Virus genome (UHGV): UHGV-0332176
Length of the DNA stretch: 64,000 bases
Strand: one strand, 5' to 3'
Origin: a virus
Below the pieces are notes generated by a model. That model had not been told where the DNA came from. It ran no database searches and was given only the letters and a program-made list of their open reading frames with translations. Every line of letters begins with the position of its first letter. Positions within the stretch are counted from its first letter, which is position 1. Shown here piece by piece: positions 3,947 through 55,602 of this stretch. Both the position numbers and the translations under genes were made by a program.

Positions 3947-4275
3947 TGATGAAAAAAATATTTTTATTATTAATAGCATTAATGTTATGTGCTTGTGCAA
4001 CTAAAACAGAAGTAATTTATCAACCTGTTTATCCAAATTTGCCACAACTTGAATCACCATTAATTTTGTCAAATATTCCTTGTAAATTTTCAATGCCAGA
4101 AAATCAGACTGAACAAATTTTTATTGGTTTTAATAAAGAAAATTTTAAATGTTATTTAAAAAATCAAGAAATAAACCGTGAACAAAAATTATTATTTGAA
4201 AAATTTGTCAATGAAGTTAATAAAGAACGAAAAATTTGGAATAATGCAAATAAAAAGGTTGACAATAAAAAATAA
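3946..4275 (+). CDS. lipoprotein
   Basis: The signal peptide MMKKIFLLLIALMLCACATK contains a lipobox-like LMLC sequence. Confidence 0.6.
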   Translation: MMKKIFLLLIALMLCACATKTEVIYQPVYPNLPQLESPLILSNIPCKFSMPENQTEQIFIGFNKENFKCYLKNQEINREQKLLFEKFVNEVNKERKIWNNANKKVDNKK

Positions 4276-4312
4276 ATGATATAGTATAACCTTAATTTAA
4301 GAGGTATTATTT

Positions 4313-4984
4313 ATGTCATTTTTTAATTTAACTAAAATAAAATCAATAACAAAATTAAATAAAATATATAGATTACTTAGTAAAACATATCATCCTGACA
4401 ATAAAGAAACAGGTGATAAAGATAAATTTATTGAGTTAAAAGAAGAATATGATAATGCAAAAAAAGTAATTTCTTCTTCACCAACACCAATTTTAATCAA
4501 TATTTCAACTTCAAAAGCATTCACAGGCTGTGAAGTTAATTATAATAATTGTGGCGATTCTGCCATAATTAAAATTCCTGCTAAATTTTATGATACTATG
4601 GATAGTGCCCTTATTTGTGATAATAATGGAAAATCATATATTGTATCCGTTAAGATAAAACCAGAAAAAGATGAAGCAATTACTTATTCACGAAATGGTG
4701 ATATAATTATTACCAAATATATTGAAATTACACCATTTGATTTAATTGGAAATAATGTTATATCATTTAATTTATTTAATGAAGAAAAACAAATTTTATT
4801 AACAAATAAATTAATAAAAAATATTCAACAACCACTAACATTATTAAATATCGGATACCCTTTGAAAAAAAATAGAAAAAAACGTGGAATTGTTAGAATA
4901 AGATTTAAAATTAAACCTTTATCTATTAAAGATGAAGATAAAAAATTATTAAAAGTTATTGAGGAAAAATATAAATGCCAGTAG
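4313..4984 (+). CDS. J-domain (DnaJ-like) co-chaperone
   Basis: YRLLSKTYHPDNKETGDKDKFIELKEEYDN matches the J-domain helix II/III with its invariant HPD tripeptide. Confidence 0.65.
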   Translation: MSFFNLTKIKSITKLNKIYRLLSKTYHPDNKETGDKDKFIELKEEYDNAKKVISSSPTPILINISTSKAFTGCEVNYNNCGDSAIIKIPAKFYDTMDSALICDNNGKSYIVSVKIKPEKDEAITYSRNGDIIITKYIEITPFDLIGNNVISFNLFNEEKQILLTNKLIKNIQQPLTLLNIGYPLKKNRKKRGIVRIRFKIKPLSIKDEDKKLLKVIEEKYKCQ

Positions 4985-7263
4985 ATGTATATGAAGAAAA
5001 ACTTTTAACCGAAATTGCTATTAAAGCATCGGATATTGCTAAAGAAACAAAATCAAAAATTTTATTACCAGAACATTTTTTATCAGTTATTTTACAAGAT
5101 AAATTTATAGTAAATCTTCTTACAAAAAAAGATACTGAAAAATATGAAAATGTTGTTAAAATGTTAAATGATTTTTGTATGAATTCAAATGATATTGACC
5201 GTATAACGGATGAAGATTCTTCTGATGAATTAATAATTAGTCCATTAATTAGTATATATATTTCATATGTAACTGTATGTAATAAAAGTTGTTTAGATAT
5301 TTTATCAAAAAATAAAGATTTTTATAAAATTAATTTATTGGGAGCTTTTTTATTTATGCATTCAACTTATGCTAATAAAGTTTTAAGAGATAATGGTTTT
5401 GATGTTAATTATATAGATGAAACAGTTGAAAATTTGGCATCAAATATTATTTTTGATGACCGTATTAAACCATTATTAGAAGAAAAAACTTCAAATACTA
5501 AAAATGATAATAATTTTGAAGAAGAATATTTAAATGCATTTACAATTAATTTAACAAATAAAGTTAAACAAAAAGATTGGATTCATATTGTTGGAAGAAA
5601 TGAAGAAATTGATTTAATTAAACAAATTTTATTAAGAAAAGATAAACCAAATGTTATTTTAGTTGGATATTCTGGTGTAGGTAAAACTAAAATTGTTGAA
5701 GGAATTGCGTTTGATTATATTAAAAAACATCCTGAAATTACATTTTTACAATTAGATACTCTTTCATTATTTTCTAATATCGGTATTAAAGGTGAATTAG
5801 AAAATAGAATAAAAAATATATATAATATTATTTCAAAAAAAGGTAATATTATTCTTTTTATTGATGAAATTCATTCTATTTGTAATTCATCTAACAATGC
5901 AAGTCAACCAGATGTTGCTAATTTATTAAAACCATTATTAACAGATGGTAAATTAAAAATTATTGGAGCAACAACTTTTGAAGAATATAGAAAATATATG
6001 GAAAATGATGAAGCATTTACAAGAAGATTTTATAAAATGATAATAAATGAACCTTCTATTGATGAAACGAGAAAGATTATTGCCCAAATTTCAACTAAAT
6101 ATGAAGAATTTTATCATATTAAATATTTACGGAGAGCAAGAGAAACTATTCTTGATTTAACAAAGAAATATATTTTTGATAAACATTTTCCAGAAAAAGC
6201 GATTGATGTATTAGATATGGCTGGTGCATATTGTAAATATATTGATAATTCTGTTTGCGATGTTTTAGAAATTCAGAAAACAATTTCAAGAATGTTAAAT
6301 ATTCCGTTATCTAATATTTCACAATCTGAAGAAGACATTTATCAACACCTTGAAGATAATCTTAAAAAAGAAATTATTGGTCAAGATGAAGCTGTTAACC
6401 AAGTAAGTGATGCCGTTATTATTGCAAGGTCTGGCTTACGAGAAGCAAATAAAACAGCAACTTCGCTAATGTTTAAAGGTTCTTCTGGTGTTGGTAAAAC
6501 AGAAATTTGTAAAGTGTTATCAAAAATTATGAATATTCCATTAGTTAGATTTGATATGTCGGAGTTTATGGAAGAACATAGTGTACCAAAATTAATTGGT
6601 GCTCCTCCTGGATATAAAGATGCGGGTGATGGAAAAGCAGGAAATGGTTTACTAATTAATGCAATTGATGAAAATCCATATTGTATTTTATTATTAGATG
6701 AAATAGAAAAAGCTCATCCAAAAATTCATAATTTATTATTACAAGTAATGGATAATGGTAAATTAACATCTTCAATGGGTAAAAGTGTTTCTTTTGAAAA
6801 TGTATTTTTAATAATGACTTCAAATGTTGGTTCATATAATAGTCATAAAATTGGAATAGGTTTTGGAAATTCAGAAACATCACCATCTGATAAAGATTTT
6901 GAAGATAGCTTTTTACCAGAATTTAGAAATCGTATAGATTCAGTCATTACATTTAACACATTGCCTGAAAGTGTAATGAAGAAAATCTGTAAAAAATTTC
7001 TTAATGAATTAAAAGATATGTTAAGAAATAAAAAGATTGATTTTAAATATAATGATGATATAATAAATTATATAGTTTCAAAAGTTGGTTCTTCTGAAAA
7101 TGGAGCAAGACCAATGAAACATATCATTACTAATGAAATCAAAAATAAAATAGCTAAAAATCTTGTATTTGGAAAATACAAAGAAAACAGTATTATTAAT
7201 TTAACAATGAATGAAAATATTATTAATTTTGAGGTTGAAGAAAAATGTTTGAAAGAAGATTAA
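4975..7263 (+). CDS. ClpA/ClpC-like Hsp100 AAA+ chaperone with two nucleotide-binding domains
   Basis: NBD1 shows GRNEEIDLIKQILLRKDKPNVILVGYSGVGKTKIVEGIAF and IGATTFEEYRKY..AFTRRF. NBD2 shows IIGQDEAVNQVSDAV, GSSGVGKTEICKVLS, RFDMSEFMEEHSV.KLIGAPPGY and LLLDEIEKAHP. At 762 aa it is about the length of ClpA. Confidence 0.8.
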   Translation: MPVDVYEEKLLTEIAIKASDIAKETKSKILLPEHFLSVILQDKFIVNLLTKKDTEKYENVVKMLNDFCMNSNDIDRITDEDSSDELIISPLISIYISYVTVCNKSCLDILSKNKDFYKINLLGAFLFMHSTYANKVLRDNGFDVNYIDETVENLASNIIFDDRIKPLLEEKTSNTKNDNNFEEEYLNAFTINLTNKVKQKDWIHIVGRNEEIDLIKQILLRKDKPNVILVGYSGVGKTKIVEGIAFDYIKKHPEITFLQLDTLSLFSNIGIKGELENRIKNIYNIISKKGNIILFIDEIHSICNSSNNASQPDVANLLKPLLTDGKLKIIGATTFEEYRKYMENDEAFTRRFYKMIINEPSIDETRKIIAQISTKYEEFYHIKYLRRARETILDLTKKYIFDKHFPEKAIDVLDMAGAYCKYIDNSVCDVLEIQKTISRMLNIPLSNISQSEEDIYQHLEDNLKKEIIGQDEAVNQVSDAVIIARSGLREANKTATSLMFKGSSGVGKTEICKVLSKIMNIPLVRFDMSEFMEEHSVPKLIGAPPGYKDAGDGKAGNGLLINAIDENPYCILLLDEIEKAHPKIHNLLLQVMDNGKLTSSMGKSVSFENVFLIMTSNVGSYNSHKIGIGFGNSETSPSDKDFEDSFLPEFRNRIDSVITFNTLPESVMKKICKKFLNELKDMLRNKKIDFKYNDDIINYIVSKVGSSENGARPMKHIITNEIKNKIAKNLVFGKYKENSIINLTMNENIINFEVEEKCLKED

Positions 7264-14785: not shown

Positions 14786-15088
14786 ATGGTTGATATTGAA
14801 AAAATTAAAAAATTAAGTAAAGAATATAATTCATTAAAAGCAATGGAAGACCAACTTGAATGGGTAAAAAATCATCAAAAAGATGTTAAATTACAATTAG
14901 ATAATGATATGACATTTCCTGTATTTGTTGATGAATATAATAATACAATTTGGGCAATGGACTATGAAGATTCTGGTTTAACCGATGAAGATATAGAATT
15001 AAATGAATTCACTTGGTATTTAGGCTGGAATGATGGGGTAAAAATTTTATTAGAATGTTACGGAATTAAAAATTGGGAAGAAGTATAA
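14786..15088 (+). CDS. hypothetical protein
   Basis: 100-aa ORF with an RBS (aaaggag). Confidence 0.5.
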   Translation: MVDIEKIKKLSKEYNSLKAMEDQLEWVKNHQKDVKLQLDNDMTFPVFVDEYNNTIWAMDYEDSGLTDEDIELNEFTWYLGWNDGVKILLECYGIKNWEEV

Positions 15089-15550
15089 ATGTTAAAAATT
15101 ATTAATGGTAATATTTTTGATGGTAATGAAGATATAATATGTCATCAAACAAATTGTTTAGGAATAATGGGTGGTGGAATTGCATTACAAGTTAAAAAAT
15201 TATATCCTAATGTTTATAATGAATATAGTAATTTATGTAAAGATTATAAAGAAAATCCATCTCAATTATTAGGATATACACAATTTGTTAAAACACCTGA
15301 TGACAGAATAATTGCTAATTGTTTTGGTCAATTGGGAATTGGTGCAACAGTACAAACACATTATATGGCATTAGCTATGTCTTTAGCATCGGTCTATCGT
15401 AAAGCAATTCAAGAAAATTTATCAGTTGCTATTCCATATAATATTGGATGTGGTTTAGCAGGTGGTGATTGGAATATTGTTTATGAAATAATTTCTAAAT
15501 TATTTAAAAATACAGATATTAATTGTGTATTATATAAATTTCAGGGTTAA
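15089..15550 (+). CDS. macro domain protein (ADP-ribose binding or hydrolase)
   Basis: INGNIFDGNEDIICHQTNCLGIMGGGIALQVKK matches the macro-domain N-terminal signature (GDIT..D.IVNAAN..L.GGGGV..AI). Confidence 0.6.
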   Translation: MLKIINGNIFDGNEDIICHQTNCLGIMGGGIALQVKKLYPNVYNEYSNLCKDYKENPSQLLGYTQFVKTPDDRIIANCFGQLGIGATVQTHYMALAMSLASVYRKAIQENLSVAIPYNIGCGLAGGDWNIVYEIISKLFKNTDINCVLYKFQG

Positions 15551-15556
15551 TTAAAT

Positions 15557-15997
15557 ATGGCAAAAGAATATAAAAATGATATTTTTGAAGTAATTAAACA
15601 AATTGATAGAAAAAATTATAATTATTATGATTCTTTAACTGATGAACAAAAAAAAGAAATTCAACCTTATACTTTAATGCGTTGGATGTCAACTGTTTCA
15701 GATGAACAGTCACATCAAAAATATAATATAACTATTAATAATAATGTAAATAAGTATTTTTGGGAATTATCCAAATATAAAGATTTACAATTTAAATTAT
15801 TATGTACTTCTGGACAAAGTGGATTTAATAGACATCAATGGATTCCAATTTCTAAAACATTAAATGATAAAACTTTAAATTCTATTAAAGAATATTTTCA
15901 AGGATTAACTTCTCAAGAAATTCAAATGAAGTATCAAAAAATGTCTAAAGAAGAAATTAAAGATATTCAAAATTTTTTGGGTTCTAATATAAAATAA
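15557..15997 (+). CDS. hypothetical protein
   Basis: 146-aa ORF. Confidence 0.5.
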   Translation: MAKEYKNDIFEVIKQIDRKNYNYYDSLTDEQKKEIQPYTLMRWMSTVSDEQSHQKYNITINNNVNKYFWELSKYKDLQFKLLCTSGQSGFNRHQWIPISKTLNDKTLNSIKEYFQGLTSQEIQMKYQKMSKEEIKDIQNFLGSNIK

Positions 15998-16026
15998 ATA
16001 CTTATATATAAATAAAAGGACCTATT

Positions 16027-16527
16027 ATGGAAATATACACCGATGGTAGCCACTCTTTAAAACCAAGAATGAGTGGGGTCGGTGCGGTCATTTTAAATAA
16101 TGGAAAAGAACACCAAATAGGTGGTTATACAGATAGATGTGCTGATAATAATGTGGCAGAAGTTATTGCAATAGCTTATGCCATAAAATATATTAAAGAC
16201 CATAAAATTGTTGATAATACAAAAGATAAAAATATTATCATTTATTCAGATTCTGCTAATGCATTACGAAAAATACATCAATTATCACCTGGTAAAGATG
16301 AATTTGAACAACAAGCATTAGATTTTATTCAAGATTTCTTACAAACAACATCTAAAAAAGTTACTTTATTTCAAATTAAAGGACACGTTCACGATGGGAC
16401 AAAAATAGCCTATTATAATAATATTGCTGATGGTTTAGCATCTGATTATCGTTATATAGGTTTAGTAAAACTTCAAAATAAATTATTTAAACAATCTCTT
16501 AAAAATAAAAAATATAAAAATAGATAA
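16027..16527 (+). CDS. ribonuclease H (RNase HI family)
   Basis: YTDGS..GVGAV, NNVAEVIAIAYAI, IIIYSDSANAL and IKGHVHDGTKIAYYNNIADGLA match the catalytic motifs of RNase HI. Confidence 0.7.
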   Translation: MEIYTDGSHSLKPRMSGVGAVILNNGKEHQIGGYTDRCADNNVAEVIAIAYAIKYIKDHKIVDNTKDKNIIIYSDSANALRKIHQLSPGKDEFEQQALDFIQDFLQTTSKKVTLFQIKGHVHDGTKIAYYNNIADGLASDYRYIGLVKLQNKLFKQSLKNKKYKNR

Positions 16528-16535
16528 ATTATCTT

Positions 16536-16570
16536 GACAATATTAAAAATTATGATAATAATATATCATA
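16536..16570 (+). promoter_or_regulatory. sigma70-like promoter
   Basis: atcTTGACAatattaaaaattatgaTAATAAT upstream of 16598. Confidence 0.4.
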
Positions 16571-16597
16571 TTTTTAATTTGTAGAAGAAGAAATTAA

Positions 16598-16984
16598 ATG
16601 TTTGAAAAATTAATAACAAAATTGATTAATTTTCCTCATTGGTGTAAATTAACATTACGTTATTTTATTCAACGTAAAAAATGGGGATTTGATGATACGG
16701 AAACTTGGAATTTAGATTTATCTTTTTATGAATGGTTATTACCAAGATTAAAAAGATTTACTGAATTAACAAATTCATATGATGATTCAAAAAATTCTTT
16801 TGAAAATTGGAAAAAAGAATTAGAAGAAAATATTAAAAAATTAGAATTAATTATTAAATATCAATTTGATGAAGTTAATTTTCCTGTTAATTATCCAAAT
16901 AAATCTTCATTAAATGCATATATTGAAAACCGTCAAGAATTTATGGAATGGTTTGAAAAAAATATTAGTAATTTATGGTGGTAG
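16598..16984 (+). CDS. hypothetical protein
   Basis: 128-aa ORF. Confidence 0.5.
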   Translation: MFEKLITKLINFPHWCKLTLRYFIQRKKWGFDDTETWNLDLSFYEWLLPRLKRFTELTNSYDDSKNSFENWKKELEENIKKLELIIKYQFDEVNFPVNYPNKSSLNAYIENRQEFMEWFEKNISNLWW

Positions 16985-17472
16985 TAATGAAAAACATATT
17001 ATATATTTTTATGAGAAATGATTTGCCTTCAATGAATGTAGGTAAGGCAATGGCACAAGCATCTCACGCTTCAGCACAATTAGTAACAAATTATTCTTCA
17101 AAATTTGAAGATATTAAAAATTGGGCTGAAGAAGGAAAAGGATTTGGAACAACGATTGTTTTAGAGGGTTCTAAAAATTCTATTAGTCATTTATTATTAA
17201 ATGTAATTAATAAAAGATACTCAATAATTACTGGAAATATTATTGATGAAACATATCCATTTAAAGCTCAAAAAGAAATACTTGATTTATTAAATTTTAA
17301 AGATAATGAATATAATATTCAAATTGTAGATGACACAATGGATAAATTTGGTATGATACTTTGTACAAGAAAAGAACATACTTGTTCTTGGATGTTTTTC
17401 CGTGGTAATGAAGATGAACAAGAACATTTTAAAAAATTATGTGAAACATTTAATATTTCACTACATAAGTAA
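16975..17472 (+). CDS. peptidyl-tRNA hydrolase, PTH2 family
   Basis: MRNDLPSMNVGKAMAQASHAS matches the PTH2 motif (M..V.R.DL.M..GK.AAQ..HA). Confidence 0.55.
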   Translation: MVVVMKNILYIFMRNDLPSMNVGKAMAQASHASAQLVTNYSSKFEDIKNWAEEGKGFGTTIVLEGSKNSISHLLLNVINKRYSIITGNIIDETYPFKAQKEILDLLNFKDNEYNIQIVDDTMDKFGMILCTRKEHTCSWMFFRGNEDEQEHFKKLCETFNISLHK

Positions 17473-17481
17473 AGGAATTAT

Positions 17482-17664
17482 ATGAAAGATAAATTTGAAT
17501 ATGAAGAAGTTGAAAAATTTAATGAAGAATTATTAAAAAAACAAAAAGGTGAATATGATTTAAAGCAAGAACGATTGGATGCTATATATAAAAATAAAGA
17601 CAAGTATAGAAATGCAAAAATTGCTGAAAGATTATATCAACAAGCATTAAAAGAAAGAACATAA
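17482..17664 (+). CDS. hypothetical small protein
   Basis: 60-aa ORF with an RBS. Confidence 0.4.
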   Translation: MKDKFEYEEVEKFNEELLKKQKGEYDLKQERLDAIYKNKDKYRNAKIAERLYQQALKERT

Positions 17665-17666
17665 AA

Positions 17667-17855
17667 ATGAATCGTTATGAAAATAATAAAAAAATTCTTA
17701 CAAAAATTGCTGAATTTATTGAGAGATGTCCAGATATGAGATTTATTCAATTATTATGGGCGTTAGGAATTGTTAATTCTGAAGATAGATTTTATGAAGA
17801 ATCAGAAAAAACTGCTGAAATTGTTGAAGAATATTGTAATAAGGTAATGAATTAA
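17667..17855 (+). CDS. hypothetical small protein
   Basis: 62 aa. Confidence 0.4.
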   Translation: MNRYENNKKILTKIAEFIERCPDMRFIQLLWALGIVNSEDRFYEESEKTAEIVEEYCNKVMN

Positions 17856-18175
17856 TGCAGATTTATAAATGTATGATTAATAGATATATTGATAAACACG
17901 GTAGTATTAGAGAATATGTTGGATATATTCATCAAAAAAAGATGTCAACTCCTGAAAATGAAGATAATTTTTTTAATGTAGATGAATTAAATGGAGAAAC
18001 AAATGGTGGATTAGATATTACACTTCCAAAAAATCCTAAACCATATCAATATTATAAACTAGTGTATGATTTAAAAATAGATACAATTGAAGGTTTAGAT
18101 TATCATTCTTCTTTATCTGGACATACAACATATTATTATCCAACAAATTTTAGATTAGAGGAATATAATGAGTAA
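17855..18175 (+). CDS. hypothetical protein
   Basis: 106 aa. Confidence 0.45.
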   Translation: MQIYKCMINRYIDKHGSIREYVGYIHQKKMSTPENEDNFFNVDELNGETNGGLDITLPKNPKPYQYYKLVYDLKIDTIEGLDYHSSLSGHTTYYYPTNFRLEEYNE

Positions 18176-18614
18176 TAGATTTAAATATAGATTATGGAAT
18201 GAACTTGAACAAAACTTTAAATATTATAATTTATTAAATTCCGAAAGTGTATCTGATTTTGGATATGATGTGGAAGAAGATATGTATGATTATAATGAAA
18301 GAGTTACATATAATCATAATGATAAAACATTTGTTTGTTTAGAACAAGGTTGTAATATTATTGATGATGATAATAAAGATTTATATGAAGGTGATATTGT
18401 TAGTGTAACACGATATAATAGTGATTGGACAGATGAAACATCTGATTATATTGGTATTATTAAATACTTTTCAGAATTTAATTCATTAGGAATTAAAACA
18501 ATTGATAAAAGATATAATACCGCATTTGCTATTGATATGCTTATAAAAAATATTAAATTAATTGGAAATATCCATCAAAATAAAGATATTTTAAAGGAAT
18601 ATAATTATGAGTAA
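18168..18614 (+). CDS. hypothetical protein
   Basis: 148 aa. Confidence 0.45.
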   Translation: MSNRFKYRLWNELEQNFKYYNLLNSESVSDFGYDVEEDMYDYNERVTYNHNDKTFVCLEQGCNIIDDDNKDLYEGDIVSVTRYNSDWTDETSDYIGIIKYFSEFNSLGIKTIDKRYNTAFAIDMLIKNIKLIGNIHQNKDILKEYNYE

Positions 18615-19320
18615 TGAATATAAAGATATGCTTTATGATGATATGTATGATAATGCATTTGAATATGCTTATTTTAAGCATCTAAATCAAAGAAGAAAGT
18701 GGACAGATGAACGATACATTAATCACCCAATAAATGTTCAACAAATTATGTGTGAACATATGAATACAATTGATACTTATGGTTGGTTTGATAGATTGGA
18801 AGAAGTAAATATATTTTCTGCCTGCTTGTTGCACGATACTGTTGAAGATACAGATGCAACTTTTGTTGATATTGAAGAAAAATTTGGTATTTATGTTAGA
18901 AATTTAGTTTATTGGTTAACAAATGTTTCAACACCTGAAATGGGTAATAGAGCATATAGGAAGAAAGTTGATTTACAGCATATTCTTCAAGCACCTATTG
19001 AAGCAATTTGTATTAAGTTGGCAGATGTTATTGATAATTGTTCTAATATTGTTAAATCTGAAAAATTTTATAATGATAATTTAAGAAAAGTTACTGAATT
19101 ACCATCAACATTTTCTGAAAAATATCTTAAAGAAAAGAAAACATTTTTAAAAGCATTGTGGAAACTTAAAAAAGAAAAATTTGATGTGGATTATGAAAAA
19201 TTAGAAGATAATACACCATCTAAAATGTTTTTAAAAAAATGGTTAATTGTTTTTAATAAATTATATAATGATTGTCAAAAAATTGTTGATGAGCAAATGA
19301 AATTATTAAATAATTCTTAA
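18607..19320 (+). CDS. HD-domain phosphohydrolase, RelA/SpoT-type (small alarmone hydrolase-like)
   Basis: YINHPINVQQIM..ACLLHDTVEDTDATFVDIEEKFG matches the SpoT/Mesh1 HD hydrolase motifs (HP..VA, LLHDVVEDT, FG). Confidence 0.6.
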   Translation: MSNEYKDMLYDDMYDNAFEYAYFKHLNQRRKWTDERYINHPINVQQIMCEHMNTIDTYGWFDRLEEVNIFSACLLHDTVEDTDATFVDIEEKFGIYVRNLVYWLTNVSTPEMGNRAYRKKVDLQHILQAPIEAICIKLADVIDNCSNIVKSEKFYNDNLRKVTELPSTFSEKYLKEKKTFLKALWKLKKEKFDVDYEKLEDNTPSKMFLKKWLIVFNKLYNDCQKIVDEQMKLLNNS

Positions 19321-19623
19321 TCCATTTTTCCAATAAAATTCTAAATCATCATCTGAATCATAACGAATTTTGGCAAATTGTAAATGAGAAATAGCATCTT
19401 GCGGTGAAATATTAAACCATTCACCGCAAGATTTTTTATCTTTTAAATCTCTATGAATTAAATGTTCAATTATTCTAACTTTAGAATCTTGTACTTCTTC
19501 TTTATAATATAATTGAAGTTTATTCATATTTCCTGTTTGTAATTGTTTTAATCGTTTTTCAGGAGTTTTTGAAAAACCTATTTTTACTTGATTTTCTGTG
19601 CCTATGACATATATATAACTCAT
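19306..19623 (-). CDS. T5orf172 / GIY-YIG-like domain protein (homing-endonuclease-like)
   Basis: The N-terminal SYIYVIGTENQVKIGFSKTPEKRLKQLQTG matches the T5orf172 (GIY-YIG-related) motif. Confidence 0.5.
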   Translation of the reverse strand: MSYIYVIGTENQVKIGFSKTPEKRLKQLQTGNMNKLQLYYKEEVQDSKVRIIEHLIHRDLKDKKSCGEWFNISPQDAISHLQFAKIRYDSDDDLEFYWKNGLRII

Positions 19624-19659
19624 AAAAATATTTATTTTACATTTTTTTAAAAAAAGTTC

Positions 19660-19688
19660 TTGACAAATGATTTTTTATATATTATAAA
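19660..19688 (+). promoter_or_regulatory. early promoter, member of the aaaaaGTTCTTGACA family
   Basis: aaaaaaagttcTTGACAaatgattttttatatatTATAAA with a 17-nt spacer. Confidence 0.6.
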
Positions 19689-19694
19689 TATAAA

Positions 19695-19922
19695 TGTAAT
19701 CAGAAATGATTATAAATCGCAATAAACCGCTTGAGTTCACTTGACAGACGATTATTTGTATTTTTCAATTTTTAAGCAAATAATACAAGATGAGATTAAA
19801 ATTGACGTTCATAGAATGGGTGAGAAAGTATTGGTATCAACAATCTAATCCCAGAGTGCCGAAGGACGAAGCAGTCGGACAATTTAAATAGGTTGGATTT
19901 GAGTAATCCAACCTATTTTTTA
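19695..19922 (+). ncRNA. candidate small RNA or leadered microORF transcript (promoter 19660 to terminator 19887-19922)
   Basis: About 230 nt with no annotated ORF. It includes a locally GC-rich segment (cccagagtgccgaaggacgaagcagtcggac), a possible 33-codon ORF (19791..19892, MRLKLTFIEWVRKYWYQQSNPRVPKDEAVGQFK) and an intrinsic terminator (aggttggatttgagtaatccaacctattttt). Confidence 0.35.
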
Positions 19923-19933
19923 TAAATATTATT

Positions 19934-20437
19934 ATGAAAATAGATGAACTTTTACATAATACTTTATTAGATTTCTTATTAGAAGCTGAAAAAAATAATA
20001 AAACTTCTTTAGATACTTATAAGCAAATTAATGCATTGAAAAAATATGGTTTTAATGCAAACAAAACTATATGGGATAATGGTTTAACAGTTGCAGATAG
20101 ATATAAAAAGAAAGTTATTGAATTAGTTATTCAACACGCTAAAAATCTTAATAGAGAAATTTATCAATGGATTTCAAAAAATTATAATTTAGGAACAATT
20201 TATTGGAAAACATCAGATAGTTCTATATCTCAATATACATATTTTGTTTTAAAAAATGGTCAGCGTTTGAGCATAAGAATTTCTGACCATAGTAAACAAG
20301 AAAATCCTGATGCTAAAACACATTTATTAGATATTTTTTATAATACAAATTTTAATGATATTATAAAAAATAAAATAGATTATTTTATTAAAAAATATTC
20401 TGGCAATAAAAATTATAAGAAAATGCTTGACAAATAA
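19934..20437 (+). CDS. hypothetical protein
   Basis: 167 aa. Confidence 0.5.
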   Translation: MKIDELLHNTLLDFLLEAEKNNKTSLDTYKQINALKKYGFNANKTIWDNGLTVADRYKKKVIELVIQHAKNLNREIYQWISKNYNLGTIYWKTSDSSISQYTYFVLKNGQRLSIRISDHSKQENPDAKTHLLDIFYNTNFNDIIKNKIDYFIKKYSGNKNYKKMLDK

Positions 20438-20487
20438 ATTTATTGTTTTAATATACAAATAGTATTTAATTTTATGAAAGAAAAATT

Positions 20488-21177
20488 ATGTATATTAAAA
20501 CAATTTATGATTTAATAGAATTTGCTAAAACACATCCAAATTATACTTATACAAATTATGAAGGAGAGAGAATTGTCTATGATGAAAATTGTAGACGTAT
20601 TAGTGATATAAAAATTAATCATTTGATGATGCATTCATTAGAAACTATTGGAATTTTGGATTTTTGTGGTTGTGTAATATCCCATAGAGCTGTTAGAGAT
20701 TACAAAATTTCAAATATTGAAGATTTTGAAGCAAAGGTTAATAAAATTAAAAATGTTATGCAAAATCTTATTAAAAAAAGTAAAGATTTAAAAGTAAAAT
20801 CCATAAAACATTTAAGCGAATATTTTAAAAATGAATATGAAATAATATATGATAAAATGTATATATCATATTCTTATTGGGGTGGGGGAAATGATGAACA
20901 AACATTGTATATTAAGGAATTAAATGCTAATACACTTAATTCAACAATTTTTTATTTTCCTTATTACTATGCTGAAAATTTAAAAAATAAAGGTTTTTAT
21001 AAACATATAATGGATTTTTATATTAAAATATTCAATGGTTTTGATGAAGATTTTAGAGATTATAAAGAATATAAAACTAATAATTCTTTTATAATTAAGC
21101 CAGAATATTATGATTTAAAAAATAAAGCATATGAGTATGCATACAATGAAATTTTACAGGAGAGTAATAATGCCTAA
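20488..21177 (+). CDS. hypothetical protein
   Basis: 229 aa. Confidence 0.5.
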   Translation: MYIKTIYDLIEFAKTHPNYTYTNYEGERIVYDENCRRISDIKINHLMMHSLETIGILDFCGCVISHRAVRDYKISNIEDFEAKVNKIKNVMQNLIKKSKDLKVKSIKHLSEYFKNEYEIIYDKMYISYSYWGGGNDEQTLYIKELNANTLNSTIFYFPYYYAENLKNKGFYKHIMDFYIKIFNGFDEDFRDYKEYKTNNSFIIKPEYYDLKNKAYEYAYNEILQESNNA

Positions 21178-21361
21178 ATGTAATTGTGGTGGTAAATTAA
21201 AAAGTAGTTATTCTCAATATCCGTTAGGTGGTTGGAAATGTATATTATTTTGCTATAAAAGTAAATGGGAAGTTATTGGTGGTGGTTTTGGTTTTTCAAA
21301 ACGTGATGCATATAAAGCTGCATTTGATAAATTACAAAAATATGAAGAAAAATTTAAATAA
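21170..21361 (+). CDS. small zinc-ribbon protein
   Basis: ATG at 21170 with an RBS (ggagag). MPKCNCGG..CILFC contains Cys pairs. The table ORF 21131 is the same frame with a likely later start. Confidence 0.45.
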   Translation: MPKCNCGGKLKSSYSQYPLGGWKCILFCYKSKWEVIGGGFGFSKRDAYKAAFDKLQKYEEKFK

Positions 21362-21438
21362 TTAAATTTTCCTATTGACAAATTAAAAAACTATGATATT
21401 AATATATTATAGTTTTTAATTTTATTGGAGAAATAAAA

Positions 21439-21621
21439 ATGAATAATGAAAAAATTTTTGATTTGTTAATTTTAGAAGATGGTTGTAATTGGCAATTACC
21501 ATATTCAATTTTAATTCAAGAAAAATCTAAAAATTTTATTAAAAAATTAAATAAATTAGAAATTTTTGAAAAAATTATGGATGAATATAATCCATATTTG
21601 GAAATTAGACGTATTAAATAA
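21439..21621 (+). CDS. hypothetical small protein
   Basis: 60 aa with an RBS (ggagaaa). Confidence 0.4.
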   Translation: MNNEKIFDLLILEDGCNWQLPYSILIQEKSKNFIKKLNKLEIFEKIMDEYNPYLEIRRIK

Positions 21622-21648
21622 TATAATGGATTAAAAAGGAATAATATT

Positions 21649-22071
21649 ATGGCTTTGCAAAATGATTATATTCACATAGTTGTTAATCCTGATGAAACCA
21701 GAGATATATATTTTTTTGATGATAAATTAAAAGGTAAGCAAAAAAATGATTGGAAAACATATTTTGATAAAGATTTTTTAAAATCTAAAAATATTGCAAC
21801 TTTTAAAGTTGAAGATAAAAAAATATTTGCAAAATTTCATACTCTTGTTAAAATAGAAGAATGGCAGGAAATAAATGAAGCCAAAATGAAAGAAGATATT
21901 AAATTTGACGAATATGAACTATCAAAATTTAAAAAATTAACTGAAATAGAAATAGAATTTAAAAAACAAGAAAAAGTTGATATTTATAATGCATATGATG
22001 TTATTATGTATGCTTATTGGAGATTTTATGAACAATATCCTGAATTTATAAGAATTACTAAACAGGAGTAA
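21649..22071 (+). CDS. hypothetical protein
   Basis: 140 aa. Confidence 0.5.
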   Translation: MALQNDYIHIVVNPDETRDIYFFDDKLKGKQKNDWKTYFDKDFLKSKNIATFKVEDKKIFAKFHTLVKIEEWQEINEAKMKEDIKFDEYELSKFKKLTEIEIEFKKQEKVDIYNAYDVIMYAYWRFYEQYPEFIRITKQE

Positions 22072-22076
22072 TATTA

Positions 22077-23330
22077 ATGAAAACTTATTTAGTTGGTGGA
22101 GCAGTTAGAGATAAATTACTTGGAAAAGAACCACACGATAAAGATTATGTTGTAGTGGGTTCAACTATTGAAGAAATGCTATCACTTGGTTTTACACAAG
22201 TTGGTAAAGATTTTCCTGTATTCCTTCATCCTAAAACAGGGGAAGAATATGCTCTTGCTCGTACTGAACGTAAAACAGGTAGTAAACATACTGATTTTTC
22301 ATTTGAATTTTCTTCTAATATAACTCTTGAAGAAGATTTAATAAGACGTGATTTTACAATTAATGCAATGGCAATGAATATGGAAACAGGTGAAATCATT
22401 GATTATTTTAATGGAAAACAAGATTTAGAAAATAAAATCCTGCGTGCAGTAAGACCTGAAACTTTTATTGAAGACCCTCTTAGAGTATTGCGTGGATGTC
22501 GTTTTGCTGCTCAATTAGATTTTTCTATTGCTCCTGAAACAATGGAATTATTTAAACAAATGGTTTTAGATGGTATGCTAGAACATTTAACTGCAGAAAG
22601 AGTTTGGAAAGAAACTGAAAAAGCATTAGCAATAGTTTATCAATCTGAAAAATATTTTGAAAATTTAAGAAAATGTGGAGCATTAAAACTTTTAATGCCT
22701 GAAGTTAATAGATTATTTGATACTCCCGAACAACTTAAATATCATCCATCGGGAAATTCAGGTAAACATACAATGATTGCATTAACACGAGTTCAAAATG
22801 AAAATTCTTTAACAAAATTCATTGTATTATGTCACGATTTTGGTAAAGGTGTCACACCTGCTGATATTTTGCCAAAACATAGTGGACACGATGAAAGAGG
22901 GTTAGCTGAAATTGATGCTTTTTGTGATAGATTAAAAGTTCCTAATAATTATCGTGAAAATGCAAAAACATTTTGTAAAAATCATATGCGTATGGCTCGT
23001 TTTCCTGAAATGAATGTTAAAAAGCAATATGATATGATTAAAGAACTTTCTAATAATTTTAAAAATATTGAAACTTTACAAATGTTTATTGAAGGTTTTT
23101 ATGCTGATTGGACAGGTGAAAATGAACAAACAGCGTGGAATGATACAAAAGAAGCTGATGATATTACATATGTAATGAAAAAAATTTTTAATATTATGTA
23201 TGGTATTACTTTAAAAGATTTACCAGAAAAAACACAAGAAGATTTAAGTAAACAAAAAGGTGAAAAATTTGGTAAACTTTATCGTGATGCAATGATAAGT
23301 TATTTAAAATTTAATTTGAAAAATTCTTAA
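22077..23330 (+). CDS. cca: tRNA nucleotidyltransferase (CCA-adding enzyme) with an HD domain
   Basis: The N-terminal YLVGGAVRDKLLGKEPHDKDYVVVGS is the class II nucleotidyltransferase head motif. A downstream HD-like motif is present (LCHDFGKG). At 417 aa it is similar to bacterial CCA enzymes. Confidence 0.75.
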   Translation: MKTYLVGGAVRDKLLGKEPHDKDYVVVGSTIEEMLSLGFTQVGKDFPVFLHPKTGEEYALARTERKTGSKHTDFSFEFSSNITLEEDLIRRDFTINAMAMNMETGEIIDYFNGKQDLENKILRAVRPETFIEDPLRVLRGCRFAAQLDFSIAPETMELFKQMVLDGMLEHLTAERVWKETEKALAIVYQSEKYFENLRKCGALKLLMPEVNRLFDTPEQLKYHPSGNSGKHTMIALTRVQNENSLTKFIVLCHDFGKGVTPADILPKHSGHDERGLAEIDAFCDRLKVPNNYRENAKTFCKNHMRMARFPEMNVKKQYDMIKELSNNFKNIETLQMFIEGFYADWTGENEQTAWNDTKEADDITYVMKKIFNIMYGITLKDLPEKTQEDLSKQKGEKFGKLYRDAMISYLKFNLKNS

Positions 23331-23367
23331 AAATATGCAATAAATAATTCTTGTAAGAGATGCCTTA

Positions 23368-23904
23368 TTGGGTTTCTTACAAGAATTTAACTTGCTTTTT
23401 AAGGAGATAAAAATGACTAAAAATAATTTAGTATCATTATTTGATGATATTTTTGATAATAAAAATTCTTTTATTGGTTTTAACGAACTTTTTAACGATT
23501 TATCTAAATTTGATTTAAATCTTACAGAACGTGGTATTAAAGATTCTTTTCCACCATATAATGTTTATACAAAAGATGTTGATGTTTCTGGTAAAGATGA
23601 ACCAGAAATGTTATTAACTCATACTTTTATTGAAGTTGCTTGTGCAGGATTTAGAAAAGAAGAACTTTCAATAAAATTTGATGAAGACAGTTCAATTTTA
23701 ACTGTTGAAGGAAATGCTAAACATAAACCAGATATTGAAGATGTAAAATATTCTTATAAAGGTATTGCAACAAGATTATTTCAACGCCAATGGAAATTAT
23801 CTGGAAAATTAAAATTTGTTAAAGCATCTTATGAAGATGGAATTTTAAAAATGGAATTTGAACCACGAATGGAAGATAAAGTTACATCACTTCCGATTGA
23901 ATAA
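23368..23904 (+). CDS. small heat-shock protein (Hsp20/alpha-crystallin family)
   Basis: LTVEGNAKHK..YKGIATRLFQRQWKLSGKLKFVKASYEDGILKMEF matches the alpha-crystallin domain. Confidence 0.65.
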   Translation: MGFLQEFNLLFKEIKMTKNNLVSLFDDIFDNKNSFIGFNELFNDLSKFDLNLTERGIKDSFPPYNVYTKDVDVSGKDEPEMLLTHTFIEVACAGFRKEELSIKFDEDSSILTVEGNAKHKPDIEDVKYSYKGIATRLFQRQWKLSGKLKFVKASYEDGILKMEFEPRMEDKVTSLPIE

Positions 23905-23932
23905 AAAAGAGGAGCAAAAGCTCCTCTTTTTA
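23905..23932. terminator. bidirectional hairpin terminator between convergent genes
   Basis: aaagaggagcaaaagctcctcttttt. Confidence 0.7.
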
Positions 23933-26890
23933 ATCATTTATACCCCATTTGATATTATCAAGATTTCCATATAATTGTTTTAAGAACCATCCAAATTTTT
24001 CTTTTGTTATTCTAACAGCATCTTCAAAATCTTCATCAGGTGAAATATATATCCATATTAAAACTTCATTATTATCACATAGTGTCCCTGCTATATCACC
24101 ATCAACGTCAAAATCATTATTAATAACACCGTGGACAGCTTCATCAGCATCCCAAATAAATAATGTTTTATTAAATGAATTGTAAAAAAATCTAAATGCA
24201 CCATATGCTGTTTTTGAAAAAGAATTTTTTATCCATTCAGCAGAAGGATTTTTCCAAATAGTTAAATATTTATTTTCTTCTGTCCAATCATCATAAAAAT
24301 CACCTTTATAAAAAATTGATTCGTTAATTTGTTTATCTTTATATATGTTATAAAGTTTTAATCCTGATTCTTTTGGCAATTCATTATATAATGAAAATTG
24401 ACCAACTTTAAATTCTGTATTTCCATCTTGTGAAACAATAAACCATTCTTTTCTTAAAGTTTTAATATCTGGTAAAATATATCTATCTTTATTATAAAGA
24501 ATAGCAACAGGTATATCTACATTAGGTTCTTTCCTTTTAACAGAAGCAACTCTATGTCTTCCTTCGTGATTTGTTACAATAAGTTTTTTATTTTTTTCAT
24601 CAACATCAACTTTTAAAAATGGAATACCATATGGTTTTCTTTCATCAATTTGTTTATCAAACCATTCATCATCGCCATATGAATATTTCGGACAAAGTTT
24701 TAAAAATTGAAATGGATACATAGTAGCAAATAAATTATGACCAATTGTTGCAGGAACATTACCTAATGCATCCATATTATTTTGCCAATTAACATTTCCA
24801 TACCAAGATGATTCATTAATTGAATTGTCCCACATTTTATGTAAAGTTTTATAAATCAAATTTATTTGATGTTTATCAAATTTCCATAATTTATTAATGT
24901 TTTCATCTGCCCATTCAAATGGAGTATTACCATATTTTTTAGACATTGCACACCAATCAGCACACATTTCAATTATTGCATCGTCAGGCATTTTGCCACA
25001 AACATCAGGTATTTGACCATCGTGTGTCCAAGATTTATCCCAAAATTGAGAATGATGAGATGCTTGCTTATAATGTTTATCTTGTGTATTTTTAAATTCT
25101 TTCCATTCATTAGGATTTAATGATTGCTTACCTATCACAAATCCTTTAACATATGGAATAAACATATCAGGTTTTAATTTATCTAAATCGTGATTTGGAT
25201 AATTTTTTCCAACTTTAGATGCATAATAATTAACTAATTGACGATGTTTAGCTAATATTTGTAAAAATTCTTGTTTATCTTCTTCTGATACAATAGTTTG
25301 ATTATATTTTAAATTATTTGATTCATCTAGTAAACCTAAATCGTCATCGGCATATAATTCTTCCCATTTTTCTTTTGGAATAGTATTTGTAGAATTATCT
25401 TTTGAATTATATCCTAATTTATTAAACCAATCACTAAATGTAAAACCCCAAATATCATAATCATTTTTTCTAAACATTACATTAGCAAAACCATCTCTGA
25501 ATTTTTTATCAACTGGATAAATGTATCTTCTAAAAATATCATCGTGAGTTCCGTAATATGCATCCCAAACATAAATATCATCATTAAAATGAGGACCAAC
25601 AATTGCTCTTAATTGTTTATTCTTGGAATTTTTTAATAAATCATTAAATTCTTTTTTAGTAGGATTTTTTAAAATAGTGAAAAAAACGTCATCACCTTGT
25701 ACATCTTTCCATTGAGTAGCATAAAAAAGACTTTCTTCTAAAAATCCATTATTTTTTAAATATTGAGGAATTAAAGTATTATAATAATTAAAAGTTTTTT
25801 TAAAATCTGATATTGCATCAAATTTATTACATTCATAAATTTTACGATAAATTTTATTTTGTGTATATATGACTATTTCAGATGATTCATTGATATTATT
25901 TTGTTGATTTGTATGAGCAATATCTTCTTTTTTGAAAAAACGCTCATCATAAATAGGATGTTTTATATCTAAATCAAAAATATCAATATTTAATATTAAT
26001 GATGAAATAATATCAGTATCACCAGTTTCGCTTTCCACTCTACAATATTGGTCTCCATCTTTATCTACATTGACAGCTTTAACAATCCATTTAATATTAT
26101 TTTCATCTATATATGCCATACCTGGTTCAAATTCAATATAATCATTATCAAACATTACACCAGTATTACCAAATTCAGATTTTCTTTTAACATATCCTTC
26201 ATCTAAATTTCTTGGTTGTTTTTTTATTAAATGAATAAGTTTATTATCTAAAATTGCAACATTATTTGTTCCGCCTTCAGTTAATAAAACTGAATTAAAA
26301 CTTTTTTTAATAATATCTAAATATTGTTCTGTAATTTCCCAATTATCAAGAAAATTAATATCATCATTTTTAAAATCCATCCAAGAATTATAATAATGAA
26401 TATTATACATATCATCATAATATTTAATTTTACCAACTTTTGATTCAAGCCATTCATAATGTGACTTGCTTGATAAATCAAAACAGTTGGATAAATCTAA
26501 TTGGGCAATATAAACCCATTTTCCATATTGTTCAGCAAAATTAATATCTGAAGACCAAAAACTTGGTGTTTTAAATTTATTAATATTATTGACGGGTGAA
26601 CCGTGATAATATACGTTAGAATATGCTGTTTCAAATATTGGTCTGGCAATTATTTTTACATAATCATTTTCAAATACTAATGAATTTTTAACATTTTCAT
26701 TAAGATTTTTAAAAGATTCTGATAAATTTTGAGGTTTATTAAATTGAATTTTTTGACAATTTTTTTTAATATCATCAAAAGAAAACCAATTTAATATGTT
26801 ATTATTATTTAATAATATATTATTATTTTTAATACATTCTACAATAAAAATTTGATGACCAAAACGTATTTTGTTTCCGACTTTTAACAT
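23930..26890 (-). CDS. 986-aa late protein with an ART-fold-like N-terminal region (candidate Alt-like packaged ADP-ribosyltransferase)
   Basis: The N-terminal ..SNVYYHGSPVNNINKFKTPSFWSSDINFAEQYGKW is paralogous to the N-terminus of 2540..3946. A TATAAATA late-promoter motif lies upstream on the minus strand (26926-26933). This is the only long minus-strand gene in the region. Confidence 0.6.
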   Translation of the reverse strand: MLKVGNKIRFGHQIFIVECIKNNNILLNNNNILNWFSFDDIKKNCQKIQFNKPQNLSESFKNLNENVKNSLVFENDYVKIIARPIFETAYSNVYYHGSPVNNINKFKTPSFWSSDINFAEQYGKWVYIAQLDLSNCFDLSSKSHYEWLESKVGKIKYYDDMYNIHYYNSWMDFKNDDINFLDNWEITEQYLDIIKKSFNSVLLTEGGTNNVAILDNKLIHLIKKQPRNLDEGYVKRKSEFGNTGVMFDNDYIEFEPGMAYIDENNIKWIVKAVNVDKDGDQYCRVESETGDTDIISSLILNIDIFDLDIKHPIYDERFFKKEDIAHTNQQNNINESSEIVIYTQNKIYRKIYECNKFDAISDFKKTFNYYNTLIPQYLKNNGFLEESLFYATQWKDVQGDDVFFTILKNPTKKEFNDLLKNSKNKQLRAIVGPHFNDDIYVWDAYYGTHDDIFRRYIYPVDKKFRDGFANVMFRKNDYDIWGFTFSDWFNKLGYNSKDNSTNTIPKEKWEELYADDDLGLLDESNNLKYNQTIVSEEDKQEFLQILAKHRQLVNYYASKVGKNYPNHDLDKLKPDMFIPYVKGFVIGKQSLNPNEWKEFKNTQDKHYKQASHHSQFWDKSWTHDGQIPDVCGKMPDDAIIEMCADWCAMSKKYGNTPFEWADENINKLWKFDKHQINLIYKTLHKMWDNSINESSWYGNVNWQNNMDALGNVPATIGHNLFATMYPFQFLKLCPKYSYGDDEWFDKQIDERKPYGIPFLKVDVDEKNKKLIVTNHEGRHRVASVKRKEPNVDIPVAILYNKDRYILPDIKTLRKEWFIVSQDGNTEFKVGQFSLYNELPKESGLKLYNIYKDKQINESIFYKGDFYDDWTEENKYLTIWKNPSAEWIKNSFSKTAYGAFRFFYNSFNKTLFIWDADEAVHGVINNDFDVDGDIAGTLCDNNEVLIWIYISPDEDFEDAVRITKEKFGWFLKQLYGNLDNIKWGIND

Positions 26891-30781: not shown

Positions 30782-31174
30782 ATGGTATATTTAGAGGAAT
30801 TGTTGCCCGAGTTCAAAAAAGGGATAAAGATTAGACGGAAACCTTGGCGTGAGGGTAGATATATTAAATTAAAAGGATTGTACGCCAGAGATGAGTACGG
30901 CAACTGCTACTTTTTAGAACCTGATGAGATAGCAGCCGATGATTGGGAATTTTACCAAGAACCTATTGACTGGGACTACATCATCAAGAACAAGTGCTTA
31001 TGCTGGTTTTGGAATAATGATAATGAAGGTATTGGAAACGTTGGAATATTATCAGATGTTTGTCAAGAAATGGAGTATCCTTTTACCAGTTTTTATCAAG
31101 GAAATAAATTTATTTGGAAATTTTGTCGTCCTGTCTACCGAAACGAGGTAATTTTTTATAATAATAAACAATAA
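30782..31174 (+). CDS. DUF2829-like protein (Thoeris anti-defence Tad2-like)
   Basis: The N-terminal LEELLPEFKKGIKIRRKPWREGRYIKL and C-terminal EPDEIAADDWEF match the DUF2829 pattern (gKkvrR.gW..g.yi ... DllAeDWe). The first ~220 nt are visibly GC-richer than the flanks. Confidence 0.55.
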   Translation: MVYLEELLPEFKKGIKIRRKPWREGRYIKLKGLYARDEYGNCYFLEPDEIAADDWEFYQEPIDWDYIIKNKCLCWFWNNDNEGIGNVGILSDVCQEMEYPFTSFYQGNKFIWKFCRPVYRNEVIFYNNKQ

Positions 31175-55469: not shown

Positions 55470-55602
55470 TTTAAAATATATTATTTAATTAGTTAATTTG
55501 ATGAAATATATATTTAGTTAATATATAAAATAATCTATGAAAGAAGTGAAAATTCTTTCATATTATTTAACTAATAAACTTTAACTAATTAAATAATATA
55601 TT

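Follow-up and report, generated by a model that had tools for sequence, protein, structure and literature searches.

The question raised by this locus is why a phage should keep, directly 3′ of its tail and baseplate genes, a dense run of genes for enzymes that act on RNA and nucleotides. The locus occupies positions 14786-23904 of a 64,000-nucleotide stretch (the window) of the viral genome UHGV-0332176. A preliminary description had read it as an accessory cluster with counter-defence functions, comprising a macro domain protein, RNase HI, a PTH2 peptidyl-tRNA hydrolase, a SpoT-type HD hydrolase, a T5orf172 nuclease and a CCA-adding enzyme. These six enzyme genes are indeed present where that description placed them, all of them pass the Pfam gathering scores, and the PHROGs assignments agree. 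Taking the directly observed domains, folds, active-site motifs, synteny and variability together, we think it probable, if by no means certain, that the block is a composite one, made up of a replication pair, a module for the maintenance or repair of tRNA acceptor ends, a set of variable accessory genes, and an Hsp20 gene with a ROSE-like leader. The conserved genes, together with the tRNA genes that bear on their interpretation, are these:

15557-15997, plus strand: 146-amino-acid (aa) protein, probable gp62-like small subunit of a clamp loader, called from its predicted fold.
16027-16527, plus strand: RNase HI (Pfam RNase_H 59.2 bits, model positions 4-138 of 141; phrog_531).
16987-17472, plus strand: PTH2-type peptidyl-tRNA hydrolase carrying a beta insertion of ~45 residues (start per gene callers).
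18607-19320, plus strand: small alarmone hydrolase (SAH), predicted, with a SpoT/Mesh1-type HD_4 domain (33.8 bits, cutoff 27.2) and a C-terminal extension.
22077-23330, plus strand: predicted class II CCA-adding tRNA nucleotidyltransferase, its C-terminal HD region sub-threshold (PolyA_pol 91.4 bits, PolyA_pol_RNAbd 36.1 bits; phrog_2244 420 bits).
23413-23904, plus strand: Hsp20 small heat-shock protein (Pfam HSP20 36 bits; phrog_432; start per gene callers).
55383-63069, plus strand: 19 tRNA genes, each with an encoded 3′ CCA (found with ARAGORN; 3′ ends read from the sequence).

The core order, namely the 146-aa open reading frame (ORF), RNase HI, PTH2, SAH, the CCA-adding enzyme and Hsp20, is syntenic just past the tail genes in phage contigs of ~170-290 kb, and can be followed down to ~55% protein identity. 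The loci that define what is constant and what is not are the following:

L001-L003, three IMG/VR contigs of 206-287 kb: collinear block, with 60-86% protein identity for most genes.
L026 (PTH2 62% identical): tail hub, ORFs of 323, 147 and 147 aa, RNase H, two small ORFs, PTH2, a 60-aa ORF, HD_4, CCA, Hsp20.
L024 (PTH2 56% identical): RNase H, PTH2, an 86-aa ORF, HD_4, RtcB, ORFs of 94 and 142 aa, CCA.
L025 (PTH2 55% identical): Macro, a 147-aa ORF, RNase H, two ORFs, PTH2, many small ORFs, CCA.
L022 (PTH2 55% identical): Macro, RNase H, CCA, Hsp20, an ART-PolyVal+DUF5662 protein, PTH2, HD_4 and YopX within ~17 kb, reordered.
L016, a distant relative (structural genes 46-56% identical): the entire 14786-26890 block is missing here, and a FEN-type 5′-3′ exonuclease gene stands in its place.
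L009 (SRR31538558), which comes from a variant of the window's own phage: the YopX gene holds an inserted EcoRI-type restriction-modification system.

The genes that come and go are the macro gene and its 100-aa neighbour, T5orf172, YopX, RtcB and many of the small ORFs. Contigs L001-L003, for example, are without the pair formed by the 100-aa ORF and the macro gene, without the 128-aa and 76-aa ORFs, and have two additional ORFs after PTH2; in L025, minus-strand DUF5662 and ART-PolyVal genes come after the CCA gene. Because the core is syntenic across the clade, the block is not the variable accessory island that it had been taken for. The preliminary description had allowed that its reading would fall if the gene set proved to be a conserved core with documented housekeeping roles; the conservation is there, the documented roles are not. 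The clustering of the enzyme genes also exceeds what chance would give, with p ~1e-3 for three random genes falling within 5.1 kb of a 284-kb genome and p ~8e-5 for six genes falling within 7 kb of the 64-kb window, both values being rough in that the gene categories were picked post hoc. Searches for related loci with the HD protein alone, or with the 986-aa protein that adjoins the block alone, as query returned zero loci.

The window has a base composition of ~25% G+C along its entire length, and tail and baseplate-like genes lie upstream of the block. Megablast of the 9-kb region against 50,697 GenBank phage records gave zero near-identical relatives, and the clade is without a cultured representative among these records. 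The phage occurs in many metagenomes: in a public assembly collection, 49 blocks index the exact CCA-enzyme protein; 24 contigs were read, and the longest that shares the window's gene order measures 284 kb (ERZ27311596 k119_54750, locus L007). Hence the source is a recurrent jumbo phage, AT-rich and of ~284 kb, in which the block sits directly 3′ of the tail and baseplate genes.

Within the core, the most economical reading of PTH2, the SAH and the CCA-adding enzyme is that they form a coherent set for maintaining and repairing the tRNA acceptor end. The PTH2 protein matches the Pfam PTH2 model at 31.7 bits (cutoff 23), through an alignment confined to its residues 9-65 and to the model's N-terminal half, and a sequence search of the PDB with it gave zero matches. 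Structure prediction upholds the domain call. The AlphaFold2 (AF2) model has a mean predicted local distance difference test score (pLDDT) of 91.9, and its top Foldseek matches in the PDB are the Pth2 structures 3erj, 1rlk, 1q7s, 2zv3 and 1xty (probability 1.0), the best being Pth2 of Archaeoglobus, Thermoplasma, Methanocaldococcus and Sulfolobus together with human Bit1; the target-normalised TM-score is ~0.7 to 3erj, 1rlk, 2zv3 and 1xty. The insertion of ~45 residues is missing from solved Pth2 structures, and the model thus presents a true PTH2 fold with an added element. From 39 collected homologues, 29 sequences were aligned; their invariant residues include R10, D12, G19, Q24, H27 and D87, and K20 is nearly invariant. 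In archaeal Pth2, an N-terminal lysine and a central aspartate are reported to be catalytic, and K20 and D87 are the corresponding conserved residues across the 29 homologues. PTH2 cleaves the ester that joins tRNA to a blocked aminoacyl or peptidyl group. The gene described earlier is therefore real; its start, which had been put at 16975, is placed at 16987 by the gene callers.

PTH2-like genes are rare in phages (30 records), and in unrelated phages they occur in contexts connected with tRNA. In RpAliso the gene is within a tRNA array, in CcrColossus it is 1.3 kb from Thg1, and in L023 it is near genes for Thg1, EF-Ts and an aminoacyl-tRNA synthetase. The 'ribonuclease' that adjoins PTH2 in RpAliso was considered as a counterpart of the RNase HI here and was rejected as not homologous. 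In the unrelated T4-like Sinorhizobium phage phiM12 (L005, 4028-13419), a PTH2-like gene is found at a distance of one ORF from a Poa1p-like macro gene; the NAD salvage genes for NMNAT-Nudix and nicotinamide phosphoribosyltransferase lie upstream, and downstream there is an RNA ligase gene; in L023, a macro homologue is found ~7 kb from PTH2. An association of PTH2 with macro genes may thus be recurrent.

The HD hydrolase at 18607-19320 is, as judged from its sequence, a hydrolase-only member of the RelA/SpoT homologue (RSH) family, that is, an SAH. The Pfam scan detected no RelA_SpoT synthetase domain in it. Its PDB matches are Drosophila Mesh1 (1.4e-15), human MESH1 and bacterial SAHs, with Mesh1 the closest solved relative, and the HD, ED and D..N motifs are intact, in that RYINHP, LLHDTVEDTD and KLADVIDN align to Mesh1. 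With the SAH of phage SSU5 it shares 34.6% identity; the stand-alone SAHs of SSU5 and PVP-SE1 neutralise all toxic small alarmone synthetases (toxSAS) tested (PMC7229694), and SAHs including Mesh1 restore aminoacylation of tRNA whose CCA ends were pyrophosphorylated by toxSAS, the pyrophosphate being stripped off (bioRxiv 10.1101/2021.04.30.441581). The earlier proposal of a SpoT-type hydrolase of this kind is thereby borne out and sharpened.

The third member of the set has 51% identity to a Salmonella Cca over 321 residues and ~43% to its counterparts in PVP-SE1-like phages; within the clade the identity is 62-86%, and its family occurs in 506 phage records. The C-terminal HD region, at 17.3 bits, stays below its cutoff of 22, though it contains an HD dipeptide. 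That the enzyme is specific for CCA rather than for poly(A) or CC/A is a prediction. What makes this enzyme telling is the tRNA cluster, which had been counted as ~20 genes and proves to hold 19: all 19 encode their CCA, so the enzyme is not needed for their maturation and its role would be the repair of tails, which agrees with the connection to tRNA 3′-end damage made in the preliminary description. In L024, an RtcB RNA ligase gene is inserted between the SAH and CCA genes; among those ORFs of the window that were scanned, there was no RtcB, Rnl, Pnkp or Thg1. A gene near the CCA enzyme of PVP-SE1, the 'hydrolase' gp162, was considered as a possible SAH and rejected, as the CCA enzyme alone matches the cluster proteins within ±12 kb there.

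If these three enzymes do act together, they would keep the tRNA pool, the 19 phage tRNAs included, chargeable during infection. PTH2 would free tRNA from peptidyl or N-blocked aminoacyl esters; the SAH would remove 3′-pyrophosphate from CCA ends, degrade (p)ppGpp/(p)ppApp, or do both; and the CCA-adding enzyme would rebuild trimmed CCA tails, with the RtcB ligase of one relative as a possible addition for cleaved RNAs. These substrates we infer, as we do the origin of the pressure, which may lie in host toxins or in ordinary tRNA damage. A bolder proposal, which we hold only tentatively and consider rather unlikely, is that PTH2, the SAH and the CCA enzyme, joined by RtcB in some relatives, form a dedicated acceptor-end repair pathway that confers broad resistance to immune effectors acting on tRNA 3′ ends. 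The effectors countered by such a pathway would be CapRel/FaRel2-type toxSAS, GNAT acetyltransferases, MenT/AbiEii nucleotidyltransferases, and tail-cleaving nucleases such as Cas12a3.

The other conserved pair points to replication. The 146-aa ORF always precedes RNase HI, and its homologues, which are unnamed and restricted to the clade, are 56-78% identical and stand beside RNase H in all relatives. Although it had been listed as unannotated, its fold is suggestive: the AF2 model (pLDDT 82) has two T4 gp62 chains as its best PDB matches, at E ~1, and clamp-loader and RFC chains recur further down that list, in which no E-value is significant; against the predicted viral structures of the BFVD, the model matches annotated clamp-loader small subunits of the Vibrio phages phi-pp2 and Kuja and of Campylobacter phage CP8 with a probability of at least 0.99. 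We therefore consider it likely, from the modelled fold, that the protein is a gp62-like clamp-loader small subunit. RNase HI is 58-86% identical in every clade member, and its DEDD residues were identified by eye alone. Most likely, then, the two genes are a replication pair, in which RNase HI would remove RNA primers. Taken together, the gp62-like call, the adjoining RNase HI gene and, in L016, a functionally analogous FEN-type exonuclease gene in the corresponding position favour replication over the counter-defence role that had been proposed for RNase HI.

The conserved block ends with Hsp20, in whose leader lies one further feature:

23354-23418, plus strand: candidate ROSE-like RNA thermometer (Rfam ROSE_3 32.5 bits, gathering score 43, E 0.0017).

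The ROSE_3 match spans the Hsp20 5′ untranslated region, the Shine-Dalgarno (SD) sequence and the start codon. A long upstream hairpin is kept in four phages, with 4 compensatory pairs, and is followed by a short UUGCU/AAGGAG (anti-SD) hairpin; the folding z-score is -3.8. The leader could thus be an RNA thermometer encoded by a phage. It is also worth recording that the window holds a set of chaperone genes, which comprises, besides Hsp20, a ClpB-like double-AAA+ protein at 4975-7263 (AAA_2 166 bits, ClpB_D2-small) and a DnaJ-domain protein at 4313-4984 that at 22.5 bits is sub-threshold; homologues of ClpB occupy the same place in L024-L026.

Interspersed with the core, and adjoining it, are the following features:

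14786-15088, plus strand: 100-aa ORF directly upstream of the macro gene; no above-threshold family match.
15089-15550, plus strand: macro domain protein of the SCO6735/BT1257 type (ALC1-like class), variable (Pfam Macro 27.0 bits, cutoff 22; phrog_335 129 bits).
16598-16984, plus strand: 128-aa lineage-specific ORF; no family match, and no homologue in L001-L003 or L022-L026.
17482-18175, plus strand: three small ORFs (60, 62 and 106 aa); no family matches.
18168-18614, plus strand: YopX domain protein, variable (Pfam YopX 31 bits).
19306-19623, minus strand: stand-alone T5orf172/MUG113 protein (GIY-YIG superfamily) of 105 aa (MUG113 55 bits, T5orf172 47.7 bits).
19934-22071, plus strand: five ORFs (167, 229, 76, 60 and 140 aa); no family matches.
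23904-23931, no strand assigned: bidirectional terminator hairpin that closes the plus-strand block (12-bp stem between A and T runs).
23930-26890, minus strand: 986-aa DUF5662 polyvalent-type protein, neighbour of the block (Pfam DUF5662 60.7 bits).

The macro protein belongs, by the residues it shares with solved homologues, to the TARG1/DarG/SCO6735 (ALC1-like) class and within it to the glutamine type represented by SCO6735. Its sequence matches in the PDB are SCO6735 5e3b (6e-11), Mtb DarG 5m3i (7e-10), BT1257, Taq DarG, Poa1p and TARG1. It has Asn22, a GCGLAGGDW loop, and Gln replacing the Lys of DarG and TARG1, and its HQTN, GQ and GCGLAGGDW align to the HVCN, GQ and GCGLAGGTW of SCO6735, so that the equivalents of Asn27, Gln85 and the Gly128 loop are kept; in SCO6735 the asparagine and the Gly-rich loop matter for function. 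The catalytic lysine is K80 in Taq DarG, K84 in TARG1 and K78 in PhiKZ AdfM (PMC9411070, PMC13309987); the window protein does not have it, and reads ..NCFGQLG.. where PhiKZ gp104 reads ..FPTKDN... Given that the phage macrodomain PhiKZ AdfM counters DarTG2 (PMC13309987), and that SCO6735 reverses DarT ADP-ribosylation and rescues E. coli from DarT (PMC9411070), an anti-DarT-like role is plausible, and by analogy this protein is plausibly the most credible stand-alone anti-defence factor among the variable genes; the relation to DarT systems suggested at the outset finds support in this homology. The family is very common in phages (2019 records). A 54%-identical homologue of the 100-aa ORF precedes the macro gene in L022, and in L001-L003 the two genes are missing together.

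A possible source of ADP-ribosyl marks within the phage also deserves mention. The N-terminus of the 986-aa protein is 37% identical to that of the ART-PolyVal+DUF5662 protein of L022, although the Pfam scan of the window protein did not call ART-PolyVal; a further ORF, at 2540-3946 on the plus strand, reaches 29.7 bits with the ART-PolyVal model, a little short of the 31.2 cutoff. A macro gene and a large ART/DUF5662 gene occur together in the window, L022 and L025; L024 and L026 have neither. Strict co-occurrence was ruled out by the L001 lineage, which encodes an ART-PolyVal+DUF5662 protein of 1507 aa although its locus is without a macro gene. The ART-PolyVal+DUF5662 relatives of the 986-aa protein, at 1207-1736 aa, vary widely in size and domain content.

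The T5orf172 gene, the 3′ end of which overlaps that of the HD gene by 15 bases, is missing from L022-L026. Its product is identical to the L001 copy at 104 of 105 aa (99%), whereas the DNA is ~91% identical; flanking DNA is ~80% and neighbour genes are ~78% identical. The near-identity of the proteins had raised the idea of a recently mobile homing endonuclease, which the DNA identity of ~91% rules out; the two values together indicate strong purifying selection, not recent transfer. Selection of this strength is unusual for a small stand-alone GIY-YIG-like protein. Its nuclease activity is a prediction, and the counter-defence role attributed to it earlier finds no link to defence here.

The ORF at 18168, previously counted as unannotated, encodes the YopX domain protein, and the restriction-modification system in the YopX gene of L009 marks an insertion hotspot; in that contig, at 3814-6359, an EcoRI-type methylase and a split endonuclease are inserted between the 106-aa ORF and the HD gene. 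Among the small ORFs, those of 60 and 62 aa are kept in L001-L003, L022 and L025, the 60-aa ORF also in L026, and the 106-aa ORF only in L001-L003. Of the five ORFs at 19934-22071, all except the 76-aa one have homologues in L001-L003, and L025 has homologues of two of these four. Scans of Pfam/PHROGs-type families gave zero matches between the small ORFs of the block and known anti-defence families. The suggestion that these ORFs encode novel inhibitors comes solely from their small size, their lack of annotation and the variability of some, and none of the results supports it.

Several observations weigh against the composite reading or against one of its parts. In L025, no HD_4 gene was found in the 20-kb stretch around PTH2, and in L022 the tRNA-end genes are spread over ~11 kb and split by a large gene on the opposite strand. 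Within 12 kb of the CCA enzyme of PVP-SE1 there is no SAH, PTH2 or macro gene. Synteny within one clade amounts to shared ancestry and is not independent proof of functional coupling, and the SAH could act purely on alarmones, manipulating the host stringent response. As for the replication pair, the 146-aa ORF gave nothing at E<=1 against phrog_225, and hhalign against T4 gp62 returned a probability of 0.6%; PDB phmmer and profile searches, hhalign and PHROGs are all negative for gp62, and only the fold searches agree on it.

Set beside the composite reading, the account given in the preliminary description appears doubtful. It would make the block a dedicated counter-defence island, in which the macro protein acts against DarT, the SAH against toxSAS, PTH2 against GNAT toxins and the CCA enzyme against tail nucleases or nucleotidyltransferase toxins, with the small ORFs as inhibitors. 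Homology to proven anti-toxin proteins (SSU5 SAH; SCO6735/DarG/AdfM) speaks for such an island, as does the cleavage of tRNA tails as a known immune mechanism (PMC12851939); moreover, the macro, T5orf172 and YopX genes and the small ORFs vary between relatives, and an EcoRI system has entered the locus in L009, as happens in accessory hotspots. However, the core genes are conserved and syntenic, RNase HI is paired with a probable clamp-loader subunit, T5orf172 is without a defence link and under strong purifying selection, the independent contexts of PTH2 are those of translation genes, and no small ORF matches a known anti-defence family. Counter-defence thus retains its appeal for the SAH, the macro protein and the CCA enzyme, and loses it for RNase HI, T5orf172, the small ORFs and the status of the whole as an accessory island.

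A different account, which we regard as improbable, dispenses with any immune target and sees takeover of the host and self-regulation: the SAH would lower host (p)ppGpp, and in this way keep host transcription and translation high, the macro protein would erase marks made by phage ART-PolyVal proteins, and the CCA enzyme and PTH2 would support the translation load. The ART-like proteins of the phage (ORF 2540-3946, and the 986-aa protein by its homology to ART-PolyVal+DUF5662 proteins) lend themselves to this account, as does the matching presence or absence of macro and ART/DUF5662 genes in the window, L022, L025, L024 and L026, and the ClpB, DnaJ-like and Hsp20 genes fit a broad support of proteostasis. 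It is countered by the L001 lineage with its ART-PolyVal+DUF5662 protein and no macro gene at the locus, by the window 986-aa protein in which Pfam does not call ART-PolyVal, and by the phage SAHs tested to date, which neutralise toxins. On balance we retain the composite reading, with its replication pair and its acceptor-end module.

Elsewhere in the window, a gene at 30782-31174 that had been assigned to DUF2829 (Tad2-like) scores 19.6 bits against a cutoff of 25, over residues 5-42 only, and the assignment is not upheld. At 51680-52941, the similarity of a 177-aa ORF to the NTPase domain of DNA polymerase III alpha (38.9 bits) is limited to a fragment of that domain, and an N6/N4 DNA methyltransferase gene (96 bits) comes directly after this ORF; this region may represent a split or interrupted polymerase gene. 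A scan for sigma-70 promoters gave 129 sites versus 126 in shuffles, and hence no enrichment.

Every gene family in this block has already been described in jumbo phages, and the block mainly extends a known jumbo-phage repertoire of RNA-repair and counter-nucleotide functions to a clade without a cultured relative in the collection searched. What is new is the conserved linkage of PTH2, SAH and CCA genes (with RtcB in one relative), the PTH2 variant with its insertion, and a phage macro protein of the glutamine type. Should PTH2, the SAH and the CCA enzyme indeed work together, the outcome would be a broad-spectrum counter to immunity directed at the tRNA acceptor end, a fast-growing class of abortive-infection effectors, and one can imagine that the enzymes would then be useful as probes of tRNA 3′-end damage. 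The locus also offers a natural comparison set, in the form of relatives with or without the macro gene, RtcB and T5orf172.

It is instructive to consider how this block relates to systems that are better known. The Pnkp/Rnl enzymes of T4 are a multi-enzyme phage system that heals and seals the anticodon-loop breaks made by PrrC. What is proposed here resembles that system in that phage enzymes would restore damaged tRNA for continued translation, and differs from it in the site of action: the window enzymes would work on the acceptor end (ester, 3′-phosphates, CCA), whereas those of T4 work on the anticodon loop. With the SAHs of SSU5 and PVP-SE1 (Jimmy et al. 2020, Kurata et al. 2021), the window SAH has in common that a large lytic phage encodes a single-domain HD hydrolase of the Mesh1/SpoT type; it differs in a C-terminal extension of ~90 residues and in that its activity is predicted, and, unlike that of PVP-SE1, it lies in a conserved block with PTH2 and a CCA enzyme. 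The macro protein, for its part, shares with SCO6735, DarG and AdfM the ALC1-like class, the Gln85 and Asn27 positions and the Gly-rich loop, but it is without the catalytic lysine of DarG, TARG1 and AdfM (its identity to AdfM being 22%), without the Lys89 of SCO6735, and without a DarT-binding domain. The closest precedent for the block as a whole is the survey of Iyer, Anantharaman, Krishnan, Burroughs and Aravind (2021; PMC7824862), the portions of which drawn on here present the CCA enzyme, PTH2, an HD-alarmone phosphodiesterase, Macro and RNA ligases as recurrent RNA-repair and counter-nucleotide functions of jumbo phages. The gene families are thus those of the window block; in those portions of the survey, however, the functions are treated separately, whereas in the window's clade PTH2, the SAH and the CCA enzyme, joined in L024 by RtcB, are brought together in one conserved locus.

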